From Nitrospirota bacterium (GTDB lineage Bacteria; Nitrospirota; UBA9217), in assembly GCA_963840455.1 (NCBI GenBank), contig CAWIYV010000011.1, forward strand, positions 64,001-128,000: DNA of 64,000 bases, in the 5' to 3' direction. The position numbers and the translations under genes are program-made. The notes below the pieces were generated by a model that did not search any database, had not been told where the DNA came from, and worked only from the letters and a program-made list of their open reading frames with translations. Positions 7,445-35,670 of this stretch are shown in pieces (the first letter of the stretch is position 1; each line of letters starts with the position of its first letter).

Positions 7445-7693
7445 TTACGGCTTCTTGATGAAGAGCTCCCACATCCCCTTGTCCTCGATCTTTACAGACT
7501 CAAAGGTAAAGCCGCTCTTCTCGCAGTAGCGAGGGATGCTGTCCTCGGCAGATGCCGGGGCATCGCACAGGACCTTCAGGATCTGGCCGCTGCTAAGTTT
7601 CTCGACCGCTTTCTTGGTCAACAGAAGCGGGTAGGGACATACCCTGCCCAGGGTGTCCAGAGTTTGTGCCGGCGTTTCGGTCTTCAGTGACAT
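7445..7693 (-). CDS. tusA: TusA-family sulfur carrier
   Basis: LDTLGRVCPYP (CPxP motif), 82 aa. Confidence 0.9.
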   Translation of the reverse strand: MSLKTETPAQTLDTLGRVCPYPLLLTKKAVEKLSSGQILKVLCDAPASAEDSIPRYCEKSGFTFESVKIEDKGMWELFIKKP

Positions 7694-8071
7694 TAGCGTT
7701 TCCTCCTCATACGAGTTTCAAATTCAGGCCGTTCGATCTGCCCGTTTGTTCAAGGTCGGAAATTCGATGCTCGCGGTCACAGCGGAAAAATATCCGCGAA
7801 TGACTTCGCGGGATCGATCCTCCGTATAAAGTATAGTACCTTAACAAAAACCTTAGGTCGTGTCAATACTCGTTTTCCTCCTATTAAAAAAACAAATACC
7901 GAAATACCGCAAGCACGGCTGAGCGCCTATTAAAAAGATTCATCGCTTCATAATGAGACTTTATAAGATACTAGACGGTCTCTTCTTGCATTTTATTTTT
8001 TTTTATATTATCGTTCACGCATCCACAACACTCCATTGCACTATGCAACAAAATTGCGGATTATAGAAGAC

Positions 8072-8141
8072 GATAACATTCTATACCCTGCAACTATGTG
8101 ATAGAAGCCCTAATCCCGTAGCTTGCTGCAGAGAGCTTCAA
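8072..8141. mobile_element. Degenerate half copy of the MITE-like element
   Basis: aacattctataccctg...tcccgtagcttgctgcagagagcttcaa resembles the right end of 54222-54337. Confidence 0.55.
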
Positions 8142-8251
8142 TGCCGATTCCTCAGGAACGGTACCCACGGCAATATTGGCTCTATTCTGTCAATAAATTA
8201 AAAAATTAAAACCGTTGAGCTTGCGGCAACATTGACCAAAGGAGGATACCA

Positions 8252-8524
8252 ATGGGTAAGAAGATCGCGGTACTGGTCCGGGACCGTCAAGGCGAGGCTT
8301 TGCGGATGTCGGTGGGCCTCACCCTGATGGACGACACCATCGACGTATATGTGCTGGACAGGAAGGTGGAGAAAAACGACGACAATGACCTGAACCTTGA
8401 GACCATCAAGGACATGGACATGAAGATCGCCACGAACACGAAAGAGAACGCTGGCATGGATTATATTTCCACCGAGGACCTGGCGAAAAAGCTCCTGGAA
8501 TACGACCACATCGTACCGTTCTAA
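8252..8524 (+). CDS. DsrE/F-like small protein (no Cys)
   Basis: KKIAVLVRD..EALRMSVGL..YDHIVPF pattern; GGAGG RBS. Confidence 0.7.
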   Translation: MGKKIAVLVRDRQGEALRMSVGLTLMDDTIDVYVLDRKVEKNDDNDLNLETIKDMDMKIATNTKENAGMDYISTEDLAKKLLEYDHIVPF

Positions 8525-8553: not shown

Positions 8554-8721
8554 ATGAAAATTCTATACATACTCAAACAGGCGCCTGATGTCACGCTCAA
8601 GACGATCATGGACGTACACAAGAAGAGCAATGAGATCACGGTCGTGGATATCAGGGAGAACAAGGACTACGGCAAGATCGTCGACCTGATCTTCTCCCAT
8701 GACAAGGTCATCTCCTGGTAG
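8554..8721 (+). CDS. DsrH/TusB-like 55-aa protein (not in the ORF track)
   Basis: MKILYILKQAPD...KDYGKIVDLIFSHDKVISW; GAGGTG RBS; DsrH-like C-terminus. Confidence 0.75.
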   Translation: MKILYILKQAPDVTLKTIMDVHKKSNEITVVDIRENKDYGKIVDLIFSHDKVISW

Positions 8722-8800: not shown

Positions 8801-9103
8801 ATGAAGCTCGGCATTTTCGTGAATACTGATAAGAACCTGGACGCCGTACAGGGTATAACCAAAGCGGCCCTGGCAAAAGGGCATGAGGTCATTCTCTTCA
8901 ACATGGATACTGGCACAAAACTGGTCAATAATCCCATTTACGCTGAATTGTCCAAAACAAAAGGGGTCTCCGTAAGTTTTTGCGATCACAGTGCAAAACA
9001 TCTGGGGGTCACCGGAGAGGGCCTTCCCAAGGAGATCGTCTCAGGAAGCCAGTACAACAATGCGGTGATGCAGCACGATGCGGACAAGGTGATCGTTCTG
9101 TAA
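8801..9103 (+). CDS. DsrE-family sulfurtransferase
   Basis: KGHEVILFNMDTG..SFCDHSA (conserved Cys)..ADKVIVL. Confidence 0.8.
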   Translation: MKLGIFVNTDKNLDAVQGITKAALAKGHEVILFNMDTGTKLVNNPIYAELSKTKGVSVSFCDHSAKHLGVTGEGLPKEIVSGSQYNNAVMQHDADKVIVL

Positions 9104-9176: not shown

Positions 9177-9674
9177 ATGACAATGAAGAAGGTACTGGTC
9201 ATGCTGTGGGTCGTGGTTATCGCGCTTTCCGTTGCCGTGCCGGGTGCTTCTGCGGCGGACGACCTGGCCGCTAAGATGAACGCAATCATGGCAAAAAGCA
9301 CGGAAGTAAGGTTCTGGCAGTTCTCGGCCGAAGAAGTAAACGCGATGATCAAGGAGAAAAAGACAGATTTTCTGGTAGTTGATACGCGTCCCAGGACGAC
9401 AGAATTCGCGGAAGGGCATATCCCGGGCGCCATCCATATCATGACGCAGGACATCTTCAAGCCCGAAAGCCTCAAGAAACTCCCGAAGAACAAAAAGATC
9501 ATTCTCTACTGCGCGACCGGACAGCTCCAGAACCTGCCGATCATTGGTCTGCGTATGCTCGGCTACGATACCTATACTCTGTGGGGCGGGTACGCCACAT
9601 GGGCGAAGGGCTCTACCGGCGGAGCGAAGATGCAGGATGCCGTCAAGGCTGCGAATTATCCGGTCGTAAAATAG
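9177..9674 (+). CDS. Exported rhodanese-domain protein
   Basis: Signal peptide ending ASA; VDTRP..EGHIPGA..LYCATG..LWGGY..W. Confidence 0.9.
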   Translation: MTMKKVLVMLWVVVIALSVAVPGASAADDLAAKMNAIMAKSTEVRFWQFSAEEVNAMIKEKKTDFLVVDTRPRTTEFAEGHIPGAIHIMTQDIFKPESLKKLPKNKKIILYCATGQLQNLPIIGLRMLGYDTYTLWGGYATWAKGSTGGAKMQDAVKAANYPVVK

Positions 9675-9681
9675 ATTGGCT

Positions 9682-9710
9682 CCCGGGAGGCATCTAAGAT
9701 GCTTCCCGGG
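9682..9710 (+). terminator. Hairpin after the rhodanese gene
   Basis: cccgggaggcatc-taa-gatgcttcccggg. Confidence 0.55.
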
Positions 9711-9879
9711 TATCACCCTATCCATTATGGCACTCTTCCGTCCATGGATATCCGGGCGAGTCGGCTATCATGAGGGCGCCGCCCGCGTCGTTGCATCCTG
9801 CGGTCAGGTTCTTTCCCGGAGATGCGCAGGGTACCGCGGCTTTTGTCATGTATCATGCGTAGCATCCCGCAGCATCTTC

Positions 9880-10167
9880 GTGAAGGGATTGTATATTGTC
9901 CTCGCGATCATCCTGCTCCATGACCTCTTCGCCCCTCACCCGTTCGCATCACCCCTGATCCTGTTCGATGGCAATCGATCGATCGAGGCTCTTGACGAGG
10001 GGCATCCATCCGCCGGAGAATTTGTCGAGGACGATGAAAATACCGCCGTGCCCAACCGGCGCGGGACACTGCTGCCTATTCTTTCCGTCAAGCTCAATGA
10101 CCAGCGGCATCCTTCTTTTCACCCGCTTCTTATGATCGCTGCAAACGAGCGCCCTCCTAAAGTATAA
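9880..10167 (+). CDS. Small hypothetical protein with hydrophobic N-terminus and ERPP C-terminus
   Basis: GTG start, VKGLYIVLAIILLH...AANERPPKV; DUF2946-like layout. Confidence 0.4.
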   Translation: MKGLYIVLAIILLHDLFAPHPFASPLILFDGNRSIEALDEGHPSAGEFVEDDENTAVPNRRGTLLPILSVKLNDQRHPSFHPLLMIAANERPPKV

Positions 10168-10361: not shown

Positions 10362-11141
10362 ATGAAATCCATAAAGATCCTTGACAAGGAATTGAGCAGA
10401 AGAGACCTGTTGATCGGCGCGGGGATCACCGCGATCGCGGCCGCGGCGCCGGGATTTGTATCAAAAGCTGAAGCCCTCGGCGGGCCAACGGAAAAATGGC
10501 CGTGGCCGTATGTGAAACTGGATCCGCAGAAGACGGCAGAGATCGCGTACGAAGAGTGGTACCGGGTGTTCTGCGGGGCTGCCGTCATCAACAGCATATT
10601 CAGCCAGCTTCGGGAGAAGGTCGGTGAGCCTTACAAATCATTCCCGGTCGATGCGTTCATCTTCCTCGAAGGCGGCGTATCGGGCTGGGGCACGATATGC
10701 GGCTGCAATTCAGGGGCAAATATCGTGACGAACCTCGTTATCGGCCCGCGGACATCCGGGACCGAGGACGGAATGCTGATGGGCAGCGAACTGATGCAAT
10801 ATTATTCGGATACGTCAATGCCGAACTTCACGCCAGCGAAAGCGAAGATCCAGGCGAATATCCCGAAGACCATCGCAGGATCGCCGCTCTGCCACGTGTC
10901 CGTGGGTAAGTGGATGAAGGCAGCGAACAAGGACCTGGGGAGCCCCGAACGGAAGGACCGGTGCGCCCGGTTGACAGGTGCCATGGCGTTCCAGACCGTC
11001 ACGCTCCTGAACCAGTGGAAGGACGGAAAGTACAAGACCAAGGGCGTCATCCCGGCCAAGGGATACGGCATTCAGTCGCAGCATAACTGCACGGACTGTC
11101 ACGGCGACAAGGTCCCGTCGCCTCCCGCAAAGAAAGTATAG
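10362..11141 (+). CDS. Tat-exported split-Soret cytochrome c-like / C_GCAxxG_C_C redox protein
   Basis: SRRDLL Tat motif; FCGAAV, GTICGC, SPLCHVSV, RCARL, CTDCH; GAGGAGG RBS before 10362. Confidence 0.8.
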   Translation: MKSIKILDKELSRRDLLIGAGITAIAAAAPGFVSKAEALGGPTEKWPWPYVKLDPQKTAEIAYEEWYRVFCGAAVINSIFSQLREKVGEPYKSFPVDAFIFLEGGVSGWGTICGCNSGANIVTNLVIGPRTSGTEDGMLMGSELMQYYSDTSMPNFTPAKAKIQANIPKTIAGSPLCHVSVGKWMKAANKDLGSPERKDRCARLTGAMAFQTVTLLNQWKDGKYKTKGVIPAKGYGIQSQHNCTDCHGDKVPSPPAKKV

Positions 11142-11258: not shown

Positions 11259-12956
11259 ATGCGGCTGCATCTCTGGCACAGAATCATGCTTCTCCTCATC
11301 ACGCCCGTCCTGGCGGCGTCGTTTATCGTTTTTTTCGAGTTCCGGAACCTGAGCACGATCTACAACAAGATCTCCGTCATCGAGATCATCGATGACATCA
11401 ACCTGACCATTCTGGAGCTCAGACGGTACGAAAAAAACATCCTGTTGTTCAACGAGGAGCAGAACATCAGGCTGTTCCATGAGTACGTTGCCGCCCTTAG
11501 GAAAAGCATCAAGAGGATGGAAAGCGAGATCGTCTCGGATATCAGCAAGGTCCGGTATCGGACCCTTCAGGAGAACATCGATCACTACGACAAGCATGTC
11601 GCCACGCTCATTGCATGCGTCAAAGAGGAGCAGCGCATCATTGAGGCCATCCGGCCGCTGGGGCGGGCCATCGAGGACATCCCTGATGCAAAACTGGCGC
11701 TCGACCTGAGACGGTACGAGAAGAACTATATCATCTATAAGGAAGCGGCAGCGGTCCATAACGTTAACAGCCTCTCAAAGAAGATCGTCACTCAACACCC
11801 CGCGCTGAAGGGCCCTGTTGCAAGATACCTCGAGGCGTTCCGCAAGATGGTCGGCAACGAGCACGCAAAGGAAGTCTCCAGCGAGCGCATCCGGCATTAT
11901 GGCCGGGAGATCCAGCAGACCGCCGCGGAACTGTCGAAGAAAAAACGGACGGACATCAATGAGATCATTGCGCAGGCCAAGAAGGCGTTTATTGCGTCCT
12001 TCCTCCTCCTGGTCGTCGCGACGGCGATCGCGGGCTTCATCATATCCACGAAGATCCTCAGGACCGTGCGGAACGTGAGCAGTGCCGTCAAGAACATGTC
12101 CAAAGGCGACTTCACCTATATTCTTGATGCGTCCGCGCCGAAGGAGATCATCGCTTTCAACCGGGACTTCAACTGCACGGTCCGAAAACTGGAAGAGGCG
12201 AAGGTGGAGCTCGACCTCACTATGGAGAAGCTGGAGGATACCAACCGGGCGCTCGTTGAGCGCCAGGAAGAGCTCCTGGAACGGCGCAAACTCACGGCGA
12301 TGCGATTGCTCGCCTCCGAGATCGCTCACGAAGTAAGCAATCCCCTGTCCTCGGTCATCATCTATCTTGGCATGCTCCGGGAATCGCTGTCCGCTGACGA
12401 TCCGAAGAAAGAGGACCTGTCGTTCATGCTGAACGAGTCGATGCGATGCCAGGCGCTGCTCCGGGAGCTGGTGGACTTCGCGCGGAAGGAGCCGCTGCAC
12501 CTGAAAGCGGCGGCCCCTGCAACGATCATCGATGACGCGCTCGAAAGCGCACGCAAGCAGAATAACGGGAAACAGGTCCTGGTCAGGGCGTCCCTGGAAG
12601 GACTTCCGGACCGCGCCGTGATCGATCCGGTCCTCATGTACCAGGTGTTCTTCAACCTGCTCATGAACGCCTATCAGCATACGTCCGACGGCGATACCAT
12701 CGAGGTCCAGGGGAGCACCATCGACGCGGCAATGCACATACAGGTGCGCGATACCGGCACGGGGATCCCCGAGGATATCCTTCCGTCTATTTTTGATCCG
12801 TTCTTTTCGACGCGCAAGGAGTCCGGAGGGAGCGGTTTGGGTCTTGCGATCACCAAGAAGATCATCGAGCGGCATCGGGGCTCGATCCAGGTCGCGAGCA
12901 GGACAGGCGAAGGAACGGTCTTTCAGATCGTCCTTCCCCTGCAGCAGGCGGGATGA
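11259..12956 (+). CDS. Membrane sensor histidine kinase with HAMP
   Basis: Two TMs; AHEVSNPL, DTGTGI, GSGLGL. Confidence 0.92.
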   Translation: MRLHLWHRIMLLLITPVLAASFIVFFEFRNLSTIYNKISVIEIIDDINLTILELRRYEKNILLFNEEQNIRLFHEYVAALRKSIKRMESEIVSDISKVRYRTLQENIDHYDKHVATLIACVKEEQRIIEAIRPLGRAIEDIPDAKLALDLRRYEKNYIIYKEAAAVHNVNSLSKKIVTQHPALKGPVARYLEAFRKMVGNEHAKEVSSERIRHYGREIQQTAAELSKKKRTDINEIIAQAKKAFIASFLLLVVATAIAGFIISTKILRTVRNVSSAVKNMSKGDFTYILDASAPKEIIAFNRDFNCTVRKLEEAKVELDLTMEKLEDTNRALVERQEELLERRKLTAMRLLASEIAHEVSNPLSSVIIYLGMLRESLSADDPKKEDLSFMLNESMRCQALLRELVDFARKEPLHLKAAAPATIIDDALESARKQNNGKQVLVRASLEGLPDRAVIDPVLMYQVFFNLLMNAYQHTSDGDTIEVQGSTIDAAMHIQVRDTGTGIPEDILPSIFDPFFSTRKESGGSGLGLAITKKIIERHRGSIQVASRTGEGTVFQIVLPLQQAG

Positions 12957-14332
12957 ACATGGTGAGAACACTGGTCATCGACGACGACATCGGGGTCTGC
13001 AGGTCGCTGGAAGCGTTCCTCACCCAGGAAGGCCACGAGGTGACGACGGGCCACCGGGCTGACACGGCCTTTGCGCGCATCGCAGAGAAGGAATTCGACA
13101 TCGTCATCACCGATCTGCGGCTTCCCGATGCGAGCGGCCTCGATATCCTCACCTGCGCGAAGAACAAGAACGCCTCAACGCAGGTCATCGTCATCACCGG
13201 GTTCGCGACGATCGAGACCGCCGTGGAAGCCATCAAACGCGGGGCCTACGACTACCTGACCAAGCCTCTTTCCACCGACAAGGTGCGGATCATCACGAAG
13301 CGGGCGCTCGAGAAGATCGCCATGGCCGAGGAGATCGCCCACCTCCGGCAGGAGCTTTCGCAGTGCTTCGGATTCGAGAACCTCATCGGGAAGAGCCCGA
13401 AGATGCAGGAGGTCTTCAAGATCATCCGCCAGACGGCCGAGAGCGACAGCAGCGTCCTGATCACCGGGGAGTCAGGAACGGGCAAGGAGCTGGTGGCGCG
13501 GGCGATCCATTACAATTCGCAGCGCAAGAACGGACGGTTCGTCCCGGTGAACTGTGGTGCGATCGCCCGGGAGCTCATCGAGGCAGAGCTTTTCGGGTAC
13601 GTGAAAGGGGCCTTCACGGGCGCCAACCGGGACAAGACCGGATTCCTGGAACTTGCGTCTGGCGGGAGCCTCTTCCTGGACGAGATCGGTGAAACGACGC
13701 CTGATTTTCAGGTGAAGCTGCTCCGCGTCATCCAGGAAGGCGAGTTCAACAAGGTGGGGTCGCCCCATCTGTCGAAGATCAATATCCGGGTTATCGCCGC
13801 ATCGAACCGGAACATCGAGAAGGCCATCGCCGACGGGGGCTTCCGCGAGGACCTGTACTACCGCTTGAACGTCATCTCCATTAAGATCCCGCCACTCCGG
13901 CAGAGGCGCGAAGACACCCCGATCCTGGTCCTGCATTTCCTCGATAAGTACTCGAAGAAGCGTCCGGACAGGAAGCAGAAAGAGATCACGCCGCAGGCGC
14001 TGGAAGCCTTGATGAACCATGATTATCCGGGGAATGTGCGGGAGCTCGAGAACGCCATCGAATACGCGGTCGCCTTTTCGCGCGGCAATGAGATCACGCA
14101 GAACGACTTGCCTGCGGCCTTCCGGAAGGAGATCGCCCCCACCGTACACCTCAAGCCGCTCAAGGCAGCCAGGTTGGAGTTCGAGCGCAGCCTTGTCGCG
14201 GCGGCGCTCCAGGAGTGCGGGGGCAATGTCTCTCGGACCGCACGGCTCCTCGACATGCACCGGCAAAGCCTGCAGCAGAAGATCAAAGAGCTCGGGATCA
14301 ACACCGATGACCTCAAGGATAGTGAACCATGA
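12953..14332 (+). CDS. sigma54-dependent response regulator (NtrC family)
   Basis: REC domain, GESGTGKE, GAFTGA, FLDEI, C-terminal HTH. Confidence 0.95.
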   Translation: MNMVRTLVIDDDIGVCRSLEAFLTQEGHEVTTGHRADTAFARIAEKEFDIVITDLRLPDASGLDILTCAKNKNASTQVIVITGFATIETAVEAIKRGAYDYLTKPLSTDKVRIITKRALEKIAMAEEIAHLRQELSQCFGFENLIGKSPKMQEVFKIIRQTAESDSSVLITGESGTGKELVARAIHYNSQRKNGRFVPVNCGAIARELIEAELFGYVKGAFTGANRDKTGFLELASGGSLFLDEIGETTPDFQVKLLRVIQEGEFNKVGSPHLSKINIRVIAASNRNIEKAIADGGFREDLYYRLNVISIKIPPLRQRREDTPILVLHFLDKYSKKRPDRKQKEITPQALEALMNHDYPGNVRELENAIEYAVAFSRGNEITQNDLPAAFRKEIAPTVHLKPLKAARLEFERSLVAAALQECGGNVSRTARLLDMHRQSLQQKIKELGINTDDLKDSEP

Positions 14333-15204
14333 AGATAGTCGTGGCGGTGGACGGGTCTGAGGCCGCGTTCAATGCGCTCCGGTCCGCCTGTATGCTGGCG
14401 GGAAAGCTTGCGGCAACCATCATAGCGATCTATGTGAACAAGGGAGAAGAGTATACTCCCGATGAGACCGGATCGCTTTCCCTCGGGGTGCGGATCACGG
14501 AAGAGCTGGAAACACGGGGGCAGGAGGCCATCCGGGAGTCCCTTGCCATCGGACGGACGTTTGACATAGCTGTCGAAGGGGTGATGTCCTACGGCATTCC
14601 TTCTGACGAGATCCTGAACTTTGTCGAAGCCCGTGGCATCATCAAGCTGATCGCCATGGCGCACAGCAGCATGGGACGTAGTGCGCAGGAGTTCGTTGAA
14701 AGCCCGACCCGGTCGGTGGTCACCCGATCACGAAATCCTGTACTTATCACCGACACCGCAGTCGAGATCAGGCGCATCCTGATCGCTGTCGATAACTCGG
14801 ACCTGACAAAGCAGGTTGCGCTCTTTGGCGGCAAGCTCGCGCGGTCCCTTGGCGCCGAACTCGGGATCATCGCTTTTGTTCCCGATGCCGAAGCGATGAT
14901 CGATGAATACCGGCTCATCGCCGATGTGCCGAACATCGACCGGTACATCGAGGCCTCAGAAAAGGACCTGAAAAGGATCCTGGACCAGGCGATTGCCAAG
15001 GCCCGGGGGGTGCTCGATCCCCTGGCCGTCAACGTTTCAGTTGTCATCAAGAAAGGGCATGCTGATGAACTCATCGCCGAAGTGGGGCCCCATGACGCGC
15101 TTGTGTTCGGCCTGAAAAAAAACACTTCTTCGCACGCTTTGCTAAGCGCGACCACGAACAAACTGCTGTCCTCTCATACCGTGAACGTCTTCTTTGTGCA
15201 ATGA
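14329..15204 (+). CDS. Tandem-domain universal stress protein
   Basis: KIVVAVDGS and RILIAVDNS Usp N-termini. Confidence 0.85.
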   Translation: MKIVVAVDGSEAAFNALRSACMLAGKLAATIIAIYVNKGEEYTPDETGSLSLGVRITEELETRGQEAIRESLAIGRTFDIAVEGVMSYGIPSDEILNFVEARGIIKLIAMAHSSMGRSAQEFVESPTRSVVTRSRNPVLITDTAVEIRRILIAVDNSDLTKQVALFGGKLARSLGAELGIIAFVPDAEAMIDEYRLIADVPNIDRYIEASEKDLKRILDQAIAKARGVLDPLAVNVSVVIKKGHADELIAEVGPHDALVFGLKKNTSSHALLSATTNKLLSSHTVNVFFVQ

Positions 15205-15388
15205 TCCCTTGCATGCCGGATAAATCGACACTGCGCACACCTTCGCCGCTCGTTCGTCTAACCGCCTGATCTTCTGATCTTTCCTGTTCTGCCTGGCCCT
15301 GCTCTCATCCCGTTGGTGCAGGAAATACCTTGCACCCCTTCGCAGCGCACTTCATGCCATCTCTTTGATTCACAAACCAAATCCGCAA

Positions 15389-15404
15389 CGGCACAGGCAT
15401 TGCT
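15389..15404 (+). promoter_or_regulatory. sigma54 promoter upstream of the GntR-TauE operon
   Basis: CGGCACAGGCATTGCT; candidate activator dyad ggtgcagg-aaata-ccttgcacc at 15315-15336. Confidence 0.7.
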
Positions 15405-15454
15405 ATGTCCTAATGTGTGAATGAAGTGATCTTCGCAACACGCATGAGGCTGCT

Positions 15455-16195
15455 ATGCACGTGAACTCCATCGACCGGACGAATCCGCAGAAGCTCTACT
15501 TCCAGCTCCTGGAAATACTCAGGGGGCAGATCGAGCAGGACACCTGGAAGGTGGGTTCTCAGATCCCGACCGAGGACCAGCTGTGCGGTCAATACAACGT
15601 AAGCAAGGCGACGGTGAGGTTGGCGATAGCAGAGCTCGTCTCGCTCGGTTATCTCAAGAAATTCCAGGGCAAGGGTACGTTCGTCCGCAGAAAGAAGCCG
15701 GGCGACCGGATCCCGATGCTACTGAACCTCGGCGAGGACCACCACCCCGCGAGCATTGTCCGCGTGCTCGACAGCAAGACCCTGCTGCCCGACGATGCCG
15801 TGAGGGAGACGCTCAATATCGACGACGGAAGCCCCTGTTCCTTCACCGTGCGGCTCGTGCTGGTTGAAGGCATGCCGATGGTGCTCCAAAAACTTTACAT
15901 CGTCTCCGGGATCTTGCCGGACGATCTGACCGTCGGGGCAATCGGAAGCACGCCTCTTCACGCATTCCTCGAATCCCGCTGCGGCGTCAGGATCCAGCGG
16001 GTCAAGGATATGACCGATGTGGCGCTGATCGACGAAGCCGCCGCAGGCGCGCTGGAACTCGCTGCCGGGACGCCTATCCTCAGGGTCCGGCGCATCAGCA
16101 GCATCCACGGCGACGAGCCGGTAAGTTTTCTGGAAGCATTATGCCGCACGGATATCTACGCACGGACGCTTGAACTGGAACGATTGAGAATATGA
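15455..16195 (+). CDS. GntR (HutC/UTRA) transcriptional regulator
   Basis: PTEDQLCGQYNVSKATVRLA..QGKGTFV plus UTRA-like C-terminus. Confidence 0.9.
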   Translation: MHVNSIDRTNPQKLYFQLLEILRGQIEQDTWKVGSQIPTEDQLCGQYNVSKATVRLAIAELVSLGYLKKFQGKGTFVRRKKPGDRIPMLLNLGEDHHPASIVRVLDSKTLLPDDAVRETLNIDDGSPCSFTVRLVLVEGMPMVLQKLYIVSGILPDDLTVGAIGSTPLHAFLESRCGVRIQRVKDMTDVALIDEAAAGALELAAGTPILRVRRISSIHGDEPVSFLEALCRTDIYARTLELERLRI

Positions 16196-27347: not shown

Positions 27348-27952
27348 TGAAGCAGCACGACACCAGGGGCAAGGTCGGACACGATGGAACGGTCACCCCT
27401 ATGCCGGAACAGAGCGTCATGCCTGCGTTCCTCTCTCAGCGCCCCTTGCACGGTGACCAGCCGCTGTTCATCCACTTCAGTTCTACGCCCCTCTTCAGGC
27501 TCGAAAATGCTCCCGCTACCTATGCCCATCTTCTGAGAAAAAAGGACCTGATACACATCGGCCCGATCGTCAACTACTTTATCAGCGGTTCAGGCCATGT
27601 TGTATATCTGGGGGGTGAGGCCGTCAAAAATCTCTATTTTTACGGCAAACGGAAATACAAATCGCTCAACATGCTGGCCATTTTGACCGTCAGGGATGTC
27701 GAGAGATATTCGTGCATCCTGAACAACATCATTTCTTCGAATGACGGCGCTTTCTCGATGGGATGGAAATTCCTGGTCAGGAAGAACAGGAGCGATGGAT
27801 GCTTCAAGGACATTGCTGATGCGCGTTATATCATAGAAGCGAGGCTGGAGGGTCCGGAGAAACTTCTGTATCCTTTCCGGCCGGCCGCGATCGAACTGGA
27901 CCTCACGACCGAGCATCGGTTTTTACACGCCTTTGGTGTTGAAATACCATAG
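27348..27952 (+). CDS. Hypothetical protein
   Basis: Protein-like ORF with GAGGAGG upstream; weak nucleotidyltransferase-like segment. Confidence 0.55.
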
Positions 27953-28049: not shown

Positions 28050-29147
28050 TTAATCCTGCATCGGCCTGATCAGTTTGAAGTAGACCATCGTCCAGTTGCC
28101 GAGGATGATGGACGTGATCGCCACGAGGCTCGATACAGCCATTGTGGACATGCCGGTGACGCCGTGGCCGAGGTTGCAGCCGCCGGCGATGACCGCGCCG
28201 ATGCCCATTAGGATGCTGCCGAAGAACACCGTCAGGAACTCCGCCGCCGGTGGGATCTTCCACTTGAACTCCTTGAGGGCCACCGCGCTCAACCAAGCGC
28301 CGAACGGCACGGAGAGGATGAAGAACATGCCCCATGATCCGCGGAAGATGCCGAGGAAGCTGAACTCAGGAAAGTTCGAGTGCGTGCTCTTGGTCAGGAG
28401 CACGCTGAAGAACTCCCGGATCGGCCCGCTAACAGCCATGCCCCGCGGCGCTCCGCCGAAATAGGATGAGACCCACCACGATGCGATGGTCAGTACACCG
28501 ATCAAGATGCCCGTTGTGCCCCAGGCAAAGCCCTTCGATTTCGACTTGAACTCCGGCTTGCCTGCGAACACAAAGGTCAGTACGCCGACGGCGAAGATCG
28601 CGATCGTGAGCCATTTGAGCGCTGGGCCTCCTCCAAAGAGGTCCCAGATGGCGGGGCTCGAGGTGCCGTTGATCTCGACCTTGAAACCCTTGAGATAATT
28701 ATTGATCGGGCTCAGCAGACCGTCCGCGGTCATCACGGCGCCGAAGAAGAACCCGAGGATGGCGATAAGGGCGGACAGCTGGCCCTCGCCGATACGATAG
28801 ACGATGCCGCTGGCGCACCCTCCGGCGAGAACGATCCCGAGGCCGAAGAGAAACCCGCCGAAGATGTTCGCCACCGGAACAAAGCTCTGACGAAGGAGCG
28901 CCACGGTCTCAAGGTTCCCAGTATCGGGATTGATCACCTGGAGAAGACCCATGTCCTCTAACAGGTTTGATCCGATGATTGCCACGACCAGGGCGAAGAG
29001 ATAGGAGCGGAAGAGCGTCAGGTCCTTCATGAAGATGATGTCGCGGAACGCAGAGTTCAGACAAAAACGACCCCTCTGCAGAATATAGCCGAGGGCAAGA
29101 CCGGCCAAAATTGCGGTCCCAAAAGAGATGATGCTACTATGCAGCAT
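28050..29147 (-). CDS. yeeE: Second YeeE/YedE family transporter
   Basis: RGRFCLNSAFRD, LAGGCASG, AGGCNLGH. Confidence 0.92.
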   Translation of the reverse strand: MLHSSIISFGTAILAGLALGYILQRGRFCLNSAFRDIIFMKDLTLFRSYLFALVVAIIGSNLLEDMGLLQVINPDTGNLETVALLRQSFVPVANIFGGFLFGLGIVLAGGCASGIVYRIGEGQLSALIAILGFFFGAVMTADGLLSPINNYLKGFKVEINGTSSPAIWDLFGGGPALKWLTIAIFAVGVLTFVFAGKPEFKSKSKGFAWGTTGILIGVLTIASWWVSSYFGGAPRGMAVSGPIREFFSVLLTKSTHSNFPEFSFLGIFRGSWGMFFILSVPFGAWLSAVALKEFKWKIPPAAEFLTVFFGSILMGIGAVIAGGCNLGHGVTGMSTMAVSSLVAITSIILGNWTMVYFKLIRPMQD

Positions 29148-29625
29148 AAGTTTTTCTCTCCTTCCAGTCTACTGTGTGGGATTTTTCACTTCTCGATCTC
29201 TTCGCGACAAGAACGGGCACGCTCGTGCTCCGCTCGACTGCCTTGAAAACGCAACCCCTTACGAACGGTCGAAACAGGGAAAAACCGTCGTCGGCAATGA
29301 TGATCAGATCCACCCTTTCTTCCCGGGCGAGGTTCAGTATCTCCTCGGACGGATCACCCTCCCTGAGGACGGTCTTGACCTTCACCGTGCCGGCTTTCTC
29401 AAGTTCCTTCTCGTAGAAACCAAGGATCCGGTCGGACCCCTCGTCCCGCGCTTGATCACGCCCGGGATGCCGCTGCTCACTCACGTCTCGTAATGCTGTC
29501 CTGTCCGCGGGCCGCCGTACGTGGACCAATACAACGCTCTCCGGTTCCCGAACCATGGCCCTGTGCACGGAAAGAACGGATTTCGCCCCTCCTGTCTCGT
29601 CCACAACCATGAGGACCTTCTTCAT
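29137..29625 (-). CDS. Universal stress protein
   Basis: KKVLMVVDE, GDPSEEIL, VPVLVAK. Confidence 0.85.
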   Translation of the reverse strand: MKKVLMVVDETGGAKSVLSVHRAMVREPESVVLVHVRRPADRTALRDVSEQRHPGRDQARDEGSDRILGFYEKELEKAGTVKVKTVLREGDPSEEILNLAREERVDLIIIADDGFSLFRPFVRGCVFKAVERSTSVPVLVAKRSRSEKSHTVDWKERKTYAA

Positions 29626-29648
29626 CCCCCCTCCTGAAGAAAAAAGTA

Positions 29649-29685
29649 CTATGACGGGCGAGATAACATACCTCGCCCGTCATAG
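29649..29685 (-). terminator. Intra-operon hairpin terminator
   Basis: ctatgacgggcgag..ctcgcccgtcatag perfect 14-bp stem, then a minus-strand T tract. Confidence 0.7.
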
Positions 29686-29712
29686 GAACGACTCAAAAAA
29701 CTGCCGAATTGA

Positions 29713-30228
29713 TTACTTCAAACCCACGGCCGCTGCCGCAGTCCAGGCAAATTTCTCTTCCGAAGAGGGATCCTTCGCAACGAGGACCGGGACCGGGGCA
29801 TACTTCTCGATATCCTTGCTGATGGATCCGGTAACCATTCTCTGCATGAAGGTTTTTCCGTTGTACCCTGTAACAATAAGGTCCACACCCTCTTCCTGGG
29901 CGACCTTCAGGATTTCCTCGGAGGTAATGCCGTCCCTGATGATTGCCTTCACACTGACCAGCCCGCCGTTCTCCAGCTCCTTCCGGTAGAAGTTCAGTAT
30001 CTTTTCCGATTTCCGGTCCAGGCTCTCTTTATATTCCGTTCCCTTCAAAGCTTCGCGAAGCGTGTTCAGCTCAGCCTCTCCGAGCATGTCGATCATCATG
30101 GACTTCCCCTCGAGCTGCTGCACATGGACCAGCACCACGCTCTCCGGAGGACGCACCATGTTCTGGAATACCGACAGAACCGCTTTTGAACCCTCTGTCT
30201 CGTCTACTGCGATCAAAACCTTCTTCAT
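29713..30228 (-). CDS. Universal stress protein
   Basis: KKVLIAVDE, VTGSIS, VPVLVAK. Confidence 0.9.
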   Translation of the reverse strand: MKKVLIAVDETEGSKAVLSVFQNMVRPPESVVLVHVQQLEGKSMMIDMLGEAELNTLREALKGTEYKESLDRKSEKILNFYRKELENGGLVSVKAIIRDGITSEEILKVAQEEGVDLIVTGYNGKTFMQRMVTGSISKDIEKYAPVPVLVAKDPSSEEKFAWTAAAAVGLK

Positions 30229-30270
30229 AACTACCTCCTTGTTTGTGGGGCGATTAACCCGTATAATATG

Positions 30271-30855
30271 TTAATGGATAACTGTTACCTTCTGGAGGAT
30301 GAATCCCAGAATGAACAGAGCGAATACGACTGCCGATGTGACGGACACAGCGGCCCATGCATCCCTTTTCGTGAACGGCTCTTCGCACATGAGCGGCCGG
30401 CGTGCTACCATGACTGGGACCTTGGCGTTCTTTTCCACGTGCTGGGCGACCTTTCCGGTGATGAACCGGTCGAAGCCTTTCCGTCCGCTCTGGCCGAGGA
30501 TGATGAGGTCCGCGCCGACCTCATCGGCAGCCTGAAGGATCTCTTCGGTCGGGATGCCTTCCCTCCTCATGGTACGAATTGTTACCTGACCGTCATTCTT
30601 AAGCTCTCTGGAGTAAAAGGCAAGGATCTTCTCCGACCTGGCCTCCACCGCCTCTATATGATCGGTGCCGCGGAGCATTTCCTTGAGCGTGGACCTCTCT
30701 GCATCGCCCAGCATGTCGATCATCAGGGAGCGACCTTCTAGCCTCTCTACATGAAGGAGGATGACCTCGACCGGCAACTGTACAAAGTTATGGAATACTG
30801 ACAATACGTTCTGAGAGCCTTTCGTATCATCTACAGCGATCAAGATCTTTTTCAT
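30271..30855 (-). CDS. Universal stress protein with C-terminal TM anchor
   Basis: KKILIAVDD, VPVMVAR, hydrophobic tail. Confidence 0.88.
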   Translation of the reverse strand: MKKILIAVDDTKGSQNVLSVFHNFVQLPVEVILLHVERLEGRSLMIDMLGDAERSTLKEMLRGTDHIEAVEARSEKILAFYSRELKNDGQVTIRTMRREGIPTEEILQAADEVGADLIILGQSGRKGFDRFITGKVAQHVEKNAKVPVMVARRPLMCEEPFTKRDAWAAVSVTSAVVFALFILGFILQKVTVIH

Positions 30856-30905
30856 GTAACCTCCAAAGCCGTTAGACCACTTTGTTTCGTATCTGACTTA
30901 TTAAT

Positions 30906-30921
30906 AGCAAATCTAATGCCA
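30906..30921 (-). promoter_or_regulatory. sigma54 promoter of the usp-usp-usp-yeeE operon
   Basis: Minus strand TGGCATTAGATTTGCT; IHF consensus TATCAATGAGTTA at 30949-30961. Confidence 0.8.
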
Positions 30922-30994
30922 TATTTTGTTTATTTACAAGCATCAACTTATCAATGAGTTACATGTCATTATAACAATATAATTGACATTTCTT

Positions 30995-31057
30995 TGTTAA
31001 AATGTTAGTTAACGTTAATTGTGTTAAGTTAACAATTAACATATTGCTAATTAACAC
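30995..31057. promoter_or_regulatory. Cluster of TGTTAA/TTAACA half-sites (candidate enhancer)
   Basis: Includes perfect dyad TGTTAAGTTAACA; about 75-135 bp upstream of the sigma54 site. Confidence 0.6.
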
Positions 31058-31092
31058 ATTACATTTTACAACGCTAGTTACCAAGGTGCCCA

Positions 31093-32448
31093 ATGCCTAA
31101 CATCGAACAATTATGCAAAGAGCCGAACTTCCTGATCAATGTCTTCGAGACCATGCGAGATGGTCTCATGATCGTCGACAAGGATGGCAACATCATTTTT
31201 TTTAACGCTGCCGCCGAACGGATCACCGGCTACCGCAAGGAAGAGGTCGTCGGACAGCAGTGCACCATTCTTGACAGCGATACCTGCGTCATCCTGACCG
31301 ACGAAGGCCGCCAGAAGGACTGCGGCATATTCAAGACGGGAGCCTCCATCAATAACAAGAAGTGCCGGATCCGCGCGAGCGACGGAAGGGCTGTCTACCT
31401 TCTGAAGAACGCAACGATCCTGAAGAACGAAAAAGGCGAGATGATCGGTGCCGTGGAATCCATGACGGACATCACCTCTCTCTATATGAAGGAAATGGAG
31501 CTCGAAGAGCTGAAGCATGAGTTGCGGCAGGAATACTGGTTCATGGGTCTCCTCGGGAAGAGCGAACCGATGCAGCATCTGTTCGAGCAGATCCGGAACG
31601 CCGCCGGCAGCGAGGCCCCCGTGCTCGTCAGCGGCGAAAGCGGCACCGGCAAGAACCTCGTGGCCCAGGCCATTCACGGGCTCAGCAGGCGCAAGGAAGG
31701 CCCCTTCGTCGCGTTGAACTGCGGGTCGCTCAATGACTATCTTCTCGAGAGCGAGCTCTTCGGCCACAAGAAAGGCTCCTTCACCGGGGCCATGAGCGAC
31801 CGCATGGGCAGGTTCGAGGCCGCCCATAACGGGAGCATCTTCCTCGACGAGATTGGTGATATGCCAAAGGTCATGCAGGTGAAGCTGCTGCGGGTCCTCG
31901 AAGAGAAGGTGGTAGAGCGCGTGGGAGACCACCGGCCGGTGCCGGTCAACGTTCGGTTGATCTCCGCGACGAACAAGGACCTGAATTCCCTCGTCAATTC
32001 AGAGGTCTTCCGGGAAGACCTCCTGTATCGCATCAACTCCATCCTGATTAAGGTCCCGCCCCTGCGGGAACGGGTGGAGGACATTCCTGTGATAACGTTC
32101 CATTACTTGAAGAAGATATCCCATATCAACAACAAGGACATCCGGAGGATCAGCCCGGACGCCTTGGATATTATCACGAACTATCGCTGGCCGGGCAATG
32201 TTCGTCAGCTGATCAATACCATCGAGCATTGCGCCATCACTTGCAAGGGTGATACCGTTGAGGTCTCGGACCTGCCGGAGTACGTCTTTCATGAGAAAAA
32301 GGTAGAGGGGAACAACAAGAGCACCGACCGTGATCAATTGCTCTCGGCCCTGTCGCAGTACAAAGGGAACCGCACGCTGACAGCGAAACACCTCGGCATC
32401 AGCAGGGTCACCTTGTGGAAAAGGCTGAAGGATCTCGGCATCGAATGA
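31093..32448 (+). CDS. PAS-domain sigma54-dependent activator
   Basis: Cys-rich PAS, GESGTGKN, GSFTGA, FLDEI, HTH. Confidence 0.93.
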   Translation: MPNIEQLCKEPNFLINVFETMRDGLMIVDKDGNIIFFNAAAERITGYRKEEVVGQQCTILDSDTCVILTDEGRQKDCGIFKTGASINNKKCRIRASDGRAVYLLKNATILKNEKGEMIGAVESMTDITSLYMKEMELEELKHELRQEYWFMGLLGKSEPMQHLFEQIRNAAGSEAPVLVSGESGTGKNLVAQAIHGLSRRKEGPFVALNCGSLNDYLLESELFGHKKGSFTGAMSDRMGRFEAAHNGSIFLDEIGDMPKVMQVKLLRVLEEKVVERVGDHRPVPVNVRLISATNKDLNSLVNSEVFREDLLYRINSILIKVPPLRERVEDIPVITFHYLKKISHINNKDIRRISPDALDIITNYRWPGNVRQLINTIEHCAITCKGDTVEVSDLPEYVFHEKKVEGNNKSTDRDQLLSALSQYKGNRTLTAKHLGISRVTLWKRLKDLGIE

Positions 32449-32556
32449 CCGGGGGCCGCAACAGCGGCGATAAAGGGCCCAACCGGGCCCCGGCCCTCTT
32501 CCGGCGCACGATGCCCTGAGAAGCGTCGTCAGGCGTAGCGTCATGAGAAGGTTGCC

Positions 32557-34059
32557 ATGTCTCTAATGAAGCCCAGCATCAGAAGGAAAATTGCATTCGG
32601 CTATCTTACTATCATCCTCATGGTCATGGGCGTGTCGGTGGTCACCCTTGCCGAAATGGAGTATGTCAAGCAGAAGATGCTGTTCGGCGGGGCGGTTCAC
32701 GCGTTCCTCGATACCATCAATGAGCTCAAGAGGTTCGAAAAAAATTACCTTCTCTATGAACGGCGGGCTGATTACCCGGAGATCGTCCGGTACATCGATC
32801 AGGCAGATGACCTCCTCGGGATCAAGAGCAACAGATTCGACGCCATCGCCTCGTCCGACCAGATCAACAACCTCCAGTCACTTCTTCATCAGTACCGGGA
32901 CTTCCTGGCTCAGTTCACCTCCCTCCTAGATCGACGGATGTCCCTGATGAACCCGGCCGATGAGGCGCGCAAGGGCATGATAGAGTTCAGGCTCCGCACG
33001 GTCGGAGACGCCATCGTGGCCTCCGCCTTCAACATCGAGAGGGACTATCGCCACAGCATCATCGAGGCCAGCAACGAAACGCGTCGGGTCCTTCTCTACT
33101 CGATCGCCGCGCTGATCCTCGTCGCGATCATAGCAGGACGTGTCCTTTCCCGCATCGTTTTGAAACCGCTCCGCCGCATCGAGACCACAATGGACGAGAT
33201 CGCGGGCGGGCAGATCGTCACCATCGGAATCGATTCCCGCGACCAGGAGATCGTTTCCCTGGCCCAGGCGTTCAACAGGATGATCCGAGAACTGGAACTC
33301 CGGCAGCGCCACCTTATCCAGTCGGAAAAACTGTCTTCCCTCGGCACCCTCCTTTCAGGGGTGGCCCATGAGTTGAACAATCCCCTGTGGAACATTTCGT
33401 CCTCGAACCAGATACTCATGGAAAAGGGAGAAGACGGCACCCCCGAATTCAGGAAGATCCATCTCGCCCAGATCGAAGAACAGACCGACCGGGCCAGGAA
33501 CATCGTGCAATCTCTCCTGGAATTCTCCCGGAGCGGTGATTTCAAAAAGCAGGCCCTGCCCCTCGGGAACGTGATCGAAGATACGCTGCGGCTTGTGAGG
33601 GGACAACTGCCGCCGGGAGTCACCGTTCAGGTCGATGTCCCCGCCAGCCTGTCGATCACGGCCGACAAGCAGCGGATTCAGCAGGTCTTCATAAACCTCG
33701 TCAAGAACGCCGGCCAGGCCATCGAAGGAGAAGGAGCAATTTCCATCAAGGCATGGAAACATCGCGCCATCGACAAGACGGAAGACAATACTGCCATTGT
33801 CAACTATCTCAAATACAGGGGGAAATGCACGCTGGAGGTCGACACTGTGGACATCGAGGTCCATGATACCGGCCAGGGAATCCCGCACGAAGATCTCTCG
33901 AAGATCTTCGACCCCTTTTTCACAACCAAGGATGTAGGCAAGGGATCGGGCCTCGGGCTGTATATCGTCCATGAGATCATCGAGGAACATGACGGTTGCA
34001 TTGCCGTCGACAGCTCGCCGGACAGGGGGACGTCGTTCCTGCTGCGGCTGCCGGCGTAG
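32557..34059 (+). CDS. Membrane sensor histidine kinase with HAMP
   Basis: AHELNNPL, DTGQGI, GSGLGL. Confidence 0.92.
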   Translation: MSLMKPSIRRKIAFGYLTIILMVMGVSVVTLAEMEYVKQKMLFGGAVHAFLDTINELKRFEKNYLLYERRADYPEIVRYIDQADDLLGIKSNRFDAIASSDQINNLQSLLHQYRDFLAQFTSLLDRRMSLMNPADEARKGMIEFRLRTVGDAIVASAFNIERDYRHSIIEASNETRRVLLYSIAALILVAIIAGRVLSRIVLKPLRRIETTMDEIAGGQIVTIGIDSRDQEIVSLAQAFNRMIRELELRQRHLIQSEKLSSLGTLLSGVAHELNNPLWNISSSNQILMEKGEDGTPEFRKIHLAQIEEQTDRARNIVQSLLEFSRSGDFKKQALPLGNVIEDTLRLVRGQLPPGVTVQVDVPASLSITADKQRIQQVFINLVKNAGQAIEGEGAISIKAWKHRAIDKTEDNTAIVNYLKYRGKCTLEVDTVDIEVHDTGQGIPHEDLSKIFDPFFTTKDVGKGSGLGLYIVHEIIEEHDGCIAVDSSPDRGTSFLLRLPA

Positions 34060-34239
34060 TTCAGGACAAACGCCGGTCCAGGGACATGAGTGAACAAGAG
34101 CTAGGATGCGGTATACAGGAGAAGAGGCGTAAAGATCGCAAGGACATCCACTGGTTTTGCTTTCTTATACGCCTTGCGTTCTCTGTTTTCTTCGCAGGAA
34201 ACAGTTTTTCGACTAGCTTCTGGATACCGGGGTACGAGA

Positions 34240-35670
34240 ATGGAAAACCGCGTGAAACTATTGATCGTCGATGACGAGCGCGTGGCGCTCAGAAACCTCG
34301 AGTATGTCATGAAGAACGAGGGCTACGATGTTGTGGCCACGCAGAGCGGGTCGAATGCCATCCGCCATCTTGATGAACAGGAGTTCGACGTGGTATTGAC
34401 GGATATGCGCATGGAGAAGGTCGATGGCATGCAGGTCCTGAAAAAGTGCCGCGAGCGCCATCCCGATACCGAGATCATCATGATCACCGCCCACGCCACG
34501 CTGGAGTCGGCAGTGGATACCATGAAGCTGGGCGCCTATAACTATATTGCAAAACCGGCAAAGCTCGACGAACTGAGGAAAGCCGTCCGTGAGGCCGTTA
34601 AAAAAGTGGCGATGAAAAAAGAGCAGCGCCACCTGAAGGAGCAGCTTAAGGGCTATCGGGGAGCGGCCAAGATCATCACCCAGGACCTTGCCGTGCGGAA
34701 ACCCTTGGAGACCGCTCGCCAGATCGCTCTCGCCGATACGAACGTGTTCATCACAGGAGAGCGCGGTACGGGGAAGAAACTCTTCGCCCGCTATATCCAT
34801 GACAACAGCAGGCGCTCAGAAGGTCCCTTTTACACCATAAACTGCGGGGCGCTCCCCGAGGAGCTTCTCGCCTACGAACTGTTCGGACACGAGAAGGACA
34901 TGCTCGGGGATCCTTCGCCGAGAAAAAAAGGGATCATCGAAGCGGCGTCGGGAGGCACAATCCTTCTGTGCGATGTGATGGCGATGCCGCCGTCCTTGCA
35001 GGTGAAGCTTCTGCAGGTGCTCGAGGACAAGGAAGGCATGCGCATCGGCGGCATCAAGCCGTTCAAGGTCGACGTACGGTTCATCGCTACGGCGAACCAC
35101 GTTCCCGTCGAAACTGCGCGGGAAGAGCCGTTCAGGCAGGACCTCTATTTCCGGTTGAACGTGGTTTCCCTCCATCTTCCCCCGCTCGCTGAGCGGAGGG
35201 ACGATATTCCCCTCCTTTCCTATTTTTTTCTGCAAAAGCATGCCGCGGGAATGAACAGGTCCGTATCCGAACTTTCCACGGACGCTCTCTCGCTCCTCAT
35301 GAACTATAACTTCCCCGGCAACGTCCGGGAACTGGAGAACATCATCGAGCGGGGCGTCGCCCTTACCAATGACGGCACCATCGAACCGGCCCACCTGCCC
35401 GACAACCTGCGGGAGCTGGACATCAGGACGTTCAAAAAGAAAGAAGGGAAGATCCCTTCGCTCGAAGAGCAGGAAATAGCTTATATTAAATGGGTCTTGA
35501 ATGAGGTCGCGGGCAACAAGACCCTTGCCGCCCAGGTCTTGGGCATCGACCGCGTATCCCTTTGGAGGAAGCTGAAGAAATACGGGCTTGAAGGATCGCG
35601 CGAGGATCTTCTTACCGGGGCCGGAGGAGCAGGCACTCCTCCGGCAGGACCGGAGACAACCGGGGATTGA
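34240..35670 (+). CDS. NtrC-like response regulator with degenerate GAFTGA and Walker B
   Basis: REC + AAA + HTH; ELFGHEKDMLGD and LLCDV replace the canonical motifs. Confidence 0.88.
   Translation: MENRVKLLIVDDERVALRNLEYVMKNEGYDVVATQSGSNAIRHLDEQEFDVVLTDMRMEKVDGMQVLKKCRERHPDTEIIMITAHATLESAVDTMKLGAYNYIAKPAKLDELRKAVREAVKKVAMKKEQRHLKEQLKGYRGAAKIITQDLAVRKPLETARQIALADTNVFITGERGTGKKLFARYIHDNSRRSEGPFYTINCGALPEELLAYELFGHEKDMLGDPSPRKKGIIEAASGGTILLCDVMAMPPSLQVKLLQVLEDKEGMRIGGIKPFKVDVRFIATANHVPVETAREEPFRQDLYFRLNVVSLHLPPLAERRDDIPLLSYFFLQKHAAGMNRSVSELSTDALSLLMNYNFPGNVRELENIIERGVALTNDGTIEPAHLPDNLRELDIRTFKKKEGKIPSLEEQEIAYIKWVLNEVAGNKTLAAQVLGIDRVSLWRKLKKYGLEGSREDLLTGAGGAGTPPAGPETTGD

Follow-up and report, generated by a model that had tools for sequence, protein, structure and literature searches.

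The yedE-tusA-dsrE (YTD) gene cluster was reportedly described by Umezawa et al. in 2020. It was once proposed as a marker of sulfur disproportionation, and its dsrE, together with two genes for hypothetical proteins, is now classed as DsrEFH type II (PMC13293266). According to the same report, orthologs from the cable bacterium Electronema pass persulfide between TusA and DsrE and on to DsrC in vitro, thiosulfate gave no persulfidation of cable-bacterial TusA/DsrEFH-II in the assays it describes, and dsrEFH type II occurs in 985 genomes, 73.9% of which also carry reductive dsrAB (PMC13293266). Here we analyzed a 28-kb region (positions 7445–35670) of a 64,000-nucleotide stretch, hereafter the window, from a Nitrospirota bacterium of the UBA9217 lineage (assembly GCA_963840455.1, contig CAWIYV010000011.1, positions 64,001–128,000), in which an earlier reading of the letters (the original prediction) had seen an expanded sulfur-trafficking island resembling the YTD clusters of sulfur disproportionators. 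The region is a mosaic of one conserved relay unit and two independently accreted accessory blocks. The locus is a member of DsrEFH type II, probably of subtype 1, which is mostly found in Nitrospirota. Overall, we consider it fairly probable that the locus is a Nitrospirota DsrEFH type II (YTD) relay with two accreted accessory blocks, feeding DsrC and DsrAB.

Central to the conserved unit are dsrF (8252–8524, +), dsrH (8554–8721, +) and dsrE (8801–9103, +), given here and below as window coordinates with strand. DsrE was recognized by Pfam (30.5 bits; cut-off 22.7) in a scan of the 92 window open reading frames (ORFs), while the DsrF-like (90 aa, no Cys) and DsrH-like (55 aa, no Cys) ORFs, which correspond to the two conserved hypothetical proteins of YTD clusters, matched no Pfam or NCBIfam family at E ≤ 0.001, the NCBIfam scan covering 30 ORFs. 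The genes are separated by 29 bp (dsrF-dsrH) and 79 bp (dsrH-dsrE), the adjacency expected of DsrEFH type II. An AlphaFold2 (AF2) model of DsrF (predicted local distance difference test, pLDDT, 90) matched DsrF 2hy5_B (Z 9.5, root mean square deviation 2.3, 88 residues aligned) and TusC 2d1p_B (Z 10.0). DsrE, DsrF and DsrH were predicted to form a heterotrimer with a score of 0.94, against 0.45 for the best of three controls, a pass that may stem from likeness to the solved DsrEFH and TusBCD; at least 98% of contacts agreed between model runs, and partner pLDDT was at least 95. Of 157 solved complexes, 116 reached the mark used for complex models, as did 2 of 215 mismatched pairs. The sulfur-carrying Cys61 of DsrE was invariant in two alignments (45/45 and 85/85 rows). 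Counted by eye, 27 of 55 DsrH residues are identical to D. thermophila T55J WP_203472007; DsrF likewise matches WP_203472008 of that strain by eye, and the window DsrE subfamily is present in the published YTD DsrE alignment. Based on these T55J proteins, the DsrE alignment, the DsrF fold and the complex model, the predicted resemblance to YedE-TusA-DsrE clusters is real orthology.

Relatives were collected by a DsrE-alignment search of GTDB genomes, from which we kept the best 80 of 188 confirmed stretches with flanks of at most 10 kb, and linkage was counted by searching all 80 loci (denoted L001 onward) with 38 window proteins in tblastn. A Nitrospirota lineage is named for 74 of the 80 loci, and named DsrE homologs are likewise Nitrospirota. 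One record labelled Betaproteobacteria (L003, L010) carries the locus and flanks as in Nitrospirota bins, at 79–91% identity, mislabelling or mis-binning being likely. The DsrE core recurred in 80/80 loci, DsrE being the anchor of the search, and DsrH matched in 76/80, a recurrence that is therefore not due to chance. The order of the conserved unit is dsrF/H/E, rhodanese, GT-C glycosyltransferase, yeeE1, tusA2, Gly-Tyr protein, usp, FAD enzyme and B12 radical SAM (S-adenosylmethionine) enzyme.

The other relay proteins retain their catalytic cysteines. A single-domain rhodanese (9177–9674, +; Pfam) is predicted to be periplasmic, with one hydrophobic stretch at residues 6–24 by hydropathy and, as read from the sequence, an A-x-A site after it, and its active Cys112 is kept in 34/34 alignment rows; a rhodanese of this or a tandem-domain type, mostly with a hydrophobic N-terminus, is found in 54/80 loci. 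YeeE1 (20510–21928, +; 472 aa, Pfam Sulf_transp), a YeeE/YedE transporter that can be aligned to S. thermophila YeeE (6leo), has Cys54, Cys122 and Cys423 in 41/41 rows. TusA2 (21977–22228, +; Pfam), in the YeeD position, has a CPxP motif with Cys22 in 45/45 rows. Divergent from dsrFHE lies TusA1 (7445–7693, −; Pfam TusA), with its CPxP active Cys19 in 13/13 rows. In five close relatives (L003, L005, L007, L008 and L012), tusA1 heads a second tusA-dsrE'F'H' operon (~7460–8300) that is missing here; the dsrE'F'H' products of those five loci are divergent, at 37–61% identity to the window copies, and the genome MAG281 has a further dsrFHE contig (L010). An unannotated ORF between the rhodanese and cytochrome genes (9676–10167, +; family c75) is kept in about five of the closest loci.

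All components of the compact YTD cluster (yedE, tusA, dsrE and the two conserved hypothetical proteins) are thus present. The compact form consists of five contiguous genes, whereas here yeeE1 starts 11.4 kb after dsrE, because of an inserted block and the GT-C gene, making this a split variant; near-contiguous forms are seen in relatives such as L034, L039, L060, L070 and L077. The order dsrF-H-E, the two YeeE types and the two TusA also distinguish the locus from published clusters, as do the rhodanese, Gly-Tyr protein, Usp, GT-C, mutase-like enzyme and B12 radical SAM enzyme, none of which was mentioned in the YTD texts searched. The YTD YedE of strain T55J resembles YeeE2 by eye, and either YeeE1 or YeeE2 may be the member of the YTD orthogroup. 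In the trimmed alignments of PMC12998232, neither the YeeE1 motifs nor those of TusA2 turned up.

The gene families named in the original prediction were confirmed: two TusA, DsrE, an exported rhodanese, a split-Soret-like cytochrome, TauE and two YeeE are present, the DsrF-like ORF was confirmed by fold, and it and the DsrH-like ORF by the heterotrimer model. Six regulators lie within 7445–35670 (two histidine kinases, three sigma54 activators and a GntR protein), where "several" had been predicted; of six predicted universal stress proteins (Usp), five match Pfam Usp and the sixth is only weakly Usp-like. That these genes constitute one expanded, integrated system is not supported; the size of the region is largely due to accretion. 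The split-Soret-like cytochrome c (10362–11141, +), which has a twin-arginine-like leader, is a lineage-limited accessory linked to the core in only 4/80 loci. It is clearly homologous to PDB 1h21 (E 2.6e-30) and misses the NCBIfam split-Soret equivalog cut-off (145 vs 400 bits), hence the label "split-Soret-like."

The first accessory block (11259–18293, +) encodes a histidine kinase, a sigma54 response regulator, tandem Usp, a GntR/UTRA regulator, two small membrane ORFs (16221–16391, weakly DVU0150-like, and 16410–16547, both +), TauE (16550–17782, +; Pfam TauE, 141.9 bits, cut-off 32.6) and the weak Usp-like ORF (17826–18293, +; hhalign probability 19%, E 0.0012). The TauE, GntR and Usp-like genes had no match in any of the 80 loci, including 40 with at least 9.9 kb of downstream sequence in which TauE would be visible. 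In L001, L002 and L006, the cytochrome gene runs directly into the GT-C gene, and the DNA of the two closest genomes (L001, L002) aligns up to position 11187 and resumes at 18544–18696. Because the TauE-GntR-Usp-like block is missing from all 80 loci and its flanks are joined directly in the closest genomes, integrated sulfite export is unsupported. Close homologs of TauE are labelled Syntrophaceae (89%), Actinobacteria (79%) and Desantisbacteria (71%).

The second block is a self-contained module (28050–32448; Pfam) of YeeE2-UspC-UspD-UspE on the minus strand, with YeeE2 at 28050–29147 (−; Sulf_transp), and a divergent PAS-sigma54 activator (31093–32448). YeeE2 shares with YeeE1 the Sulf_transp domain and three conserved cysteines, established for YeeE1 by alignment and for YeeE2 as three motifs read in the translation. 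The module has its own sigma54 −24/−12 site ahead of uspE (30907–30921), present in 4/4 copies (window, L004, L035, L041). The module is tied to the core in 3/80 loci, on either side, the 10-kb flanks hiding that position in most loci; L005 and L007 have a different gene there. The TauE and YeeE2 blocks appear as separately regulated modules and may not be part of the relay. A sigma54 consensus scan of the window gave five matches against 4.3 expected by chance, of which only the pre-uspE site is conserved; sigma54 control of the core was also considered and rejected, a site lying upstream of dsrF in 3/37 loci and of yeeE1 in 3/43 loci only.

Between the core and the YeeE2 block, two hypothetical ORFs (26513–27061, membrane, and 27326–27952, both +) are confined to the closest relatives (4/80 and 2/80 loci). 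To the right of the YeeE2 block, a histidine kinase and sigma54 response regulator (32557–35670, +) have no orthologs in related loci (best near-full-length identity ~41%). Remnants of a second, decayed radical SAM gene and a GT2 glycosyltransferase (35624–36490, −), detected by tblastn of locus families c36 and c47, mark the ancestral right end of the locus: the intact families occur in 14 and 10 loci, where they close the locus convergently, and the 3' end of the decayed radical SAM gene overlaps the tail of the sigma54 regulator. A mobile-island signature was rejected, with G+C content at third codon positions (0.60–0.84) showing no step at the block edges and no integrase among the 92 ORFs; Rfam and tRNA matches were absent from the window.

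It has been suggested that the YTD cluster marks disproportionation, and the original prediction had tied the region specifically to disproportionators of elemental sulfur (S0). In the published survey, dsrEFH type II was present in only 25 of 63 cultured disproportionators, and also in many sulfate reducers that do not disproportionate (PMC13293266). Similarly, the YTD cluster is described as among the best candidates yet no stand-alone marker (PMC12998232), and has been reported in a strain that failed to grow by disproportionation (PMC9676032). The cluster is not a marker of disproportionation, and the specific link is not supported; more likely, it feeds oxidation via DsrC and DsrAB. A single co-regulated system of sulfane import and sulfite export spanning all 28 kb and dedicated to S0 disproportionation is accordingly improbable. 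Such a system would account for the presence of all the gene families and for the shared plus-strand orientation of the genes from dsrF through the radical SAM gene, and YTD proteins are reported to increase in D. dissulfuricans during thiosulfate disproportionation (PMC9751629). It is at odds with the linkage counts given above for TauE, GntR, the Usp-like ORF, the cytochrome and the YeeE2 module, with the spread of TauE homologs over several phyla and with the neighboring ORF weakly resembling DVU0150, whose family is tied to syntrophy.

Under the favored reading, the periplasmic rhodanese would take up sulfane sulfur from polysulfide or S0 on Cys112, and YeeE1 would carry it inward along its three conserved cysteines, the substrate and direction being presumed. 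TusA2 would accept the sulfur on Cys22 and pass it to Cys61 of DsrE within the DsrEFH heterotrimer, a step observed in vitro for the cable-bacterial orthologs and modelled here. DsrEFH would then hand it to DsrC, which is as far as the in vitro work on orthologs reaches, and DsrAB, encoded elsewhere, would oxidize it to sulfite. In the simplest view, the GT-C, mutase-like flavoenzyme and B12 radical SAM set would glycosylate the envelope and have been retained alongside the relay. Sulfur oxidation may be what the flux supports, or else the oxidative arm of disproportionation; these genes do not discriminate between the two. Of the periplasm-to-cytoplasm relay with sulfite export originally envisaged, the relay is a fair inference in view of the frequency of the exported rhodanese, and the export part is unsupported, given the absence of TauE from related loci. 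In one relative (L063:3185–7264), dsrA and dsrB (above cut-off) with DsrD-like and DsrN-like genes lie ~2.3 kb from dsrFHE-GT-C-yeeE1, and in a Nitrospirota bin (L072:220–3097), soxZ, soxA and soxB, above NCBIfam cut-offs, lie upstream of yeeE-tusA-dsrE.

Several observations weigh against this reading. Pfam found no dsrAB, dsrC, dsrMK, aprAB, sat or sqr among the 92 window ORFs, and L063 and L072 are the only 2/80 loci with dissimilatory sulfur genes nearby, as judged from a scan of 103 accessory ORFs, a subset of all; about a fifth of dsrEFH-II genomes are shown without dsrAB in the published survey (PMC13293266). The dsrF gene is not within 10 kb in 11/27 full-length loci, E and H being separable from F, which fits the "incomplete" YTD clusters reported from Nitrobium and Sulfobium (PMC8906906). 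The 80 loci come from 79 bins, are biased to close relatives, are non-independent through kinship and often lie on short contigs. As regards TauE, the longest contig listed is 15,366 bp both for a DsrE homolog (P0002, 91%) and for the TauE homolog P0129 (92%), so the TauE block may also exist in some close relative, and during thiosulfate disproportionation in D. thermophilus, TauE and a Usp are reported as more abundant and the YTD YedE as less abundant (PMC13490349). The possible shared contig and the rise of TauE and Usp would also favor a single system.

The most conserved companions of the core, all overlooked in the original prediction, are the GT-C, the Gly-Tyr protein, the FAD enzyme and the B12 radical SAM enzyme. 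The GT-C membrane glycosyltransferase (18476–20185, +; Pfam PMT_2) lies between dsrE and yeeE in most relatives and is present in 49/80 loci. Its AF2 model (pLDDT 88.6) has the lipid A modifier ArnT (5f15, E 3.9e-8) as nearest solved structure in Foldseek, and the GT-C fold was recovered in the top 29 matches at E ≤ 0.001, those listed being ArnT, OST/PglB/AglB, ALG, PMT and DPY19. The flavin adenine dinucleotide (FAD) enzyme (23422–24840, +, the start inferred from homologs, with the longest ORF starting at 23248) belongs to the PRK07208 family (NCBIfam NF005548, 456.6 bits, cut-off 389) and matches eukaryotic UDP-galactopyranose mutases over its full length (PDB 4dsg, E 9e-23); at 42.8 bits against the 303.75 required for the bacterial mutase (TIGR00031), it is predicted to be mutase-like only. 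It is present in 37/80 loci. The cobalamin-dependent radical SAM enzyme (24842–26302, +; Pfam), encoded 1 bp after the FAD enzyme, has CxxxCxxC at 212–219 and occurs in 36/80 loci. It passed no NCBIfam equivalog cut-off (best HpnJ, 202 bits, cut-off 578), and its Atlas matches are generic B12 radical SAM clusters only; named homologs are Nitrospirota plus two Actinomycetota, one Desulfobacterales and one unclassified at 59–62%, a weak hint only. A quick tree of the radical SAM enzyme served for placement only.

To measure how tightly these enzymes follow the relay, we used 42 informative loci with at least 8.5 kb downstream, calling a YeeE1- or YeeE2-type gene at 40% identity or above. Such a gene was found in 36 loci. 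The radical SAM enzyme was present in 35 of these (in two as a partial match only, at the edge of the locus or in a record with a frameshift), the FAD enzyme in 33, the GT-C in 31 and all three in 30; the remaining six of the 42 loci carried none of them. The flanks vary, with 11 named upstream families and five unique neighbors among 33 loci, and true orthologs of the window's own upstream genes remain in about 4–7 of 46 loci. Five loci (L043, L046, L053, L062, L073) have another architecture, of tandem rhodanese, peptidase M54, dsrE-F-H, an exported protein, a divergent YeeE, TusA and Usp, with a second YeeE-TusA pair and arsenic-resistance-like genes upstream and no glycosylation genes. In addition, seven loci encode a ~70-aa CGCG-motif protein near the GT-C or rhodanese (family c61, e.g., L018:2678–2893) without a Pfam match.

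This co-occurrence could reflect inheritance alone, an unrelated lipopolysaccharide- or lipid-modifying operon having been fused with YTD in a Nitrospirota ancestor, and we consider such hitch-hiking quite conceivable. A heptosyltransferase (GT9) family occurs in 29 loci, so an unrelated lipopolysaccharide-modifying role stays plausible; it is the direct upstream neighbor in 10/33. The similarity of the GT-C to ArnT and the non-independence of the loci point the same way, as do identity distances, which correlate better among the three enzymes (rho 0.66–0.79) than with YeeE1 (0.34–0.53). However, the GT-C sits between dsrE/H and yeeE, remains attached when located upstream of dsrF (L064) and stays where a YeeE2-type gene replaces YeeE1-TusA2 (L030, L032, L057, L075), whereas other window neighbors survive in at most 7/46 loci.

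Alternatively, YeeE1-TusA2-DsrEFH could act like TusA-TusBCD and supply sulfur for a sulfur-containing sugar, lipid or surface glycan made by the adjacent radical SAM/flavoenzyme/GT-C pathway. Genes for the three enzymes are interspersed among those of the relay and are retained as the flanks change, the DsrF model fits TusC as well as DsrF, the dsr sulfite-reductase genes (dsrAB/dsrC) are absent from the window ORFs as noted, and the radical SAM enzyme has extra invariant cysteines (C115, C288, C305). Nonetheless, we regard a biosynthetic relay as highly improbable: orthologous DsrEFH-II hands sulfur to DsrC in vitro, the five-gene YTD clusters described from Desulfobacterota lack these enzymes, all three enzymes are missing together from 6/42 informative Nitrospirota loci, relatives of the B12 radical SAM enzyme are widespread, archaea included, and no precedent was found in literature searches.

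Two smaller proteins complete the conserved unit. A membrane-anchored Gly-Tyr repeat protein (22261–22581, +) consists of GGYG-x-AP repeats, encoded by a 27-bp DNA repeat present 4.5 times, and such an ORF follows the TusA2 ortholog in 33/39 loci. The window protein has no Pfam match, two orthologs reach only a prion-repeat model, below cut-off, and the nearest Atlas cluster, below the recognition mark, is hypothetical and mostly Nitrospirota. A role as Ser/Thr O-glycosylation acceptor of the GT-C is doubtful, Ser and Thr making up 7% of the repeats and not being conserved. The conserved UspB (22758–23219, +; Pfam) has a CxC motif in most orthologs (C25 in 81% and C27 in 86% of 36 rows); this could be a persulfide- or redox-sensing site, and the Usp paralogs of the YeeE2 module are without CxC.

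The glycosylation and radical SAM companions are apparently new, as we did not find them in print, while the DsrEFH-II core itself is already known. Full-text searches of the literature and term searches within PMC13293266, PMC13490349, PMC9676032, PMC9751629 and PMC12998232 gave no mention of a GT-C/mutase/radical SAM extension in the text, and synteny in figure images could show more. Tentatively, and as a rather unlikely reading, the Nitrospirota DsrEFH-II relay might come with a dedicated cell-envelope module that makes contact with S0 or stores it, composed of the Gly-Tyr protein, acting in the manner of a globule coat, and a periplasmic glycosylation pathway. In such a module, the flavoenzyme, B12 radical SAM enzyme and GT-C, sometimes with the GT2 and second radical SAM enzyme, would make an unusual sugar, possibly methylated or sulfur-bearing, and attach it on the periplasmic side. 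If true, the module and the exported rhodanese could be what starts S0 mobilization, a step that bears on how S0 oxidizers and disproportionators with reductive-type DsrAB bring sulfur into the cell. The core is one more locus beside the 985 counted, and the useful yield is the list of Nitrospirota companions. These (exported rhodanese, Gly-Tyr protein, CxC Usp, GT-C, mutase-like enzyme and B12 radical SAM enzyme) would escape surveys with hidden Markov models of sulfur genes and can be tested by expression on S0 and by biochemistry.

Outside the locus, an operon of a Rieske protein and a split cytochrome b, with N- and C-terminal parts in separate genes (36600–38193, −), lies to the right. 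Its orthologs are directly upstream of tusA1-dsrFHE in L011 (1447–3009), a possible quinol-linked partner in the lineage. Further away are genes for a xanthine-dehydrogenase-family molybdoenzyme, a 2Fe-2S subunit, XdhC and a MobA-like protein (46099–50586, −).

Among other known systems, the Desulfovibrio DVU0145–0150 region likewise has a small membrane ORF before a TauE-family gene, DVU0149, which we take to encode a TauE-family protein, with a response regulator and Usp nearby. The DVU0150 match is weak (26.9 bits; cut-off 70), and the DVU0150 family has been tied to syntrophic growth in D. vulgaris (PMC4265775). In the YeeE-YeeD (TsuA-TsuB) system of Spirochaeta thermophila and E. coli, the YeeE similarly has three cysteines and a CPxP TusA directly downstream; YeeE1 differs from TsuA by a long internal insertion, and both YeeE fall below the TsuA equivalog cut-off of NCBIfam (112.2 and 223.6 vs 400 bits). 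Sulfur globule proteins are rich in Gly and Tyr. Like the Gly-Tyr protein, those described as SgpABC and the Beggiatoa 15-kDa protein are small, exported and of low complexity, with regularly spaced prolines (PMC7356093), a likeness that is compositional only, as the window protein has an N-terminal membrane anchor and no clearly cleaved leader. Compared with DsrEFH type I of Allochromatium vinosum (2HY5) and with TusBCD (2D1P), the proteins here are 17–22% identical, with a much shorter F and a much shorter, Cys-free H, and are encoded outside any rdsr operon or tRNA-thiolation context, yet they share with both the DsrF fold (Z 9.5–10.0), the heterotrimer architecture, as predicted here, and a single active Cys on E.

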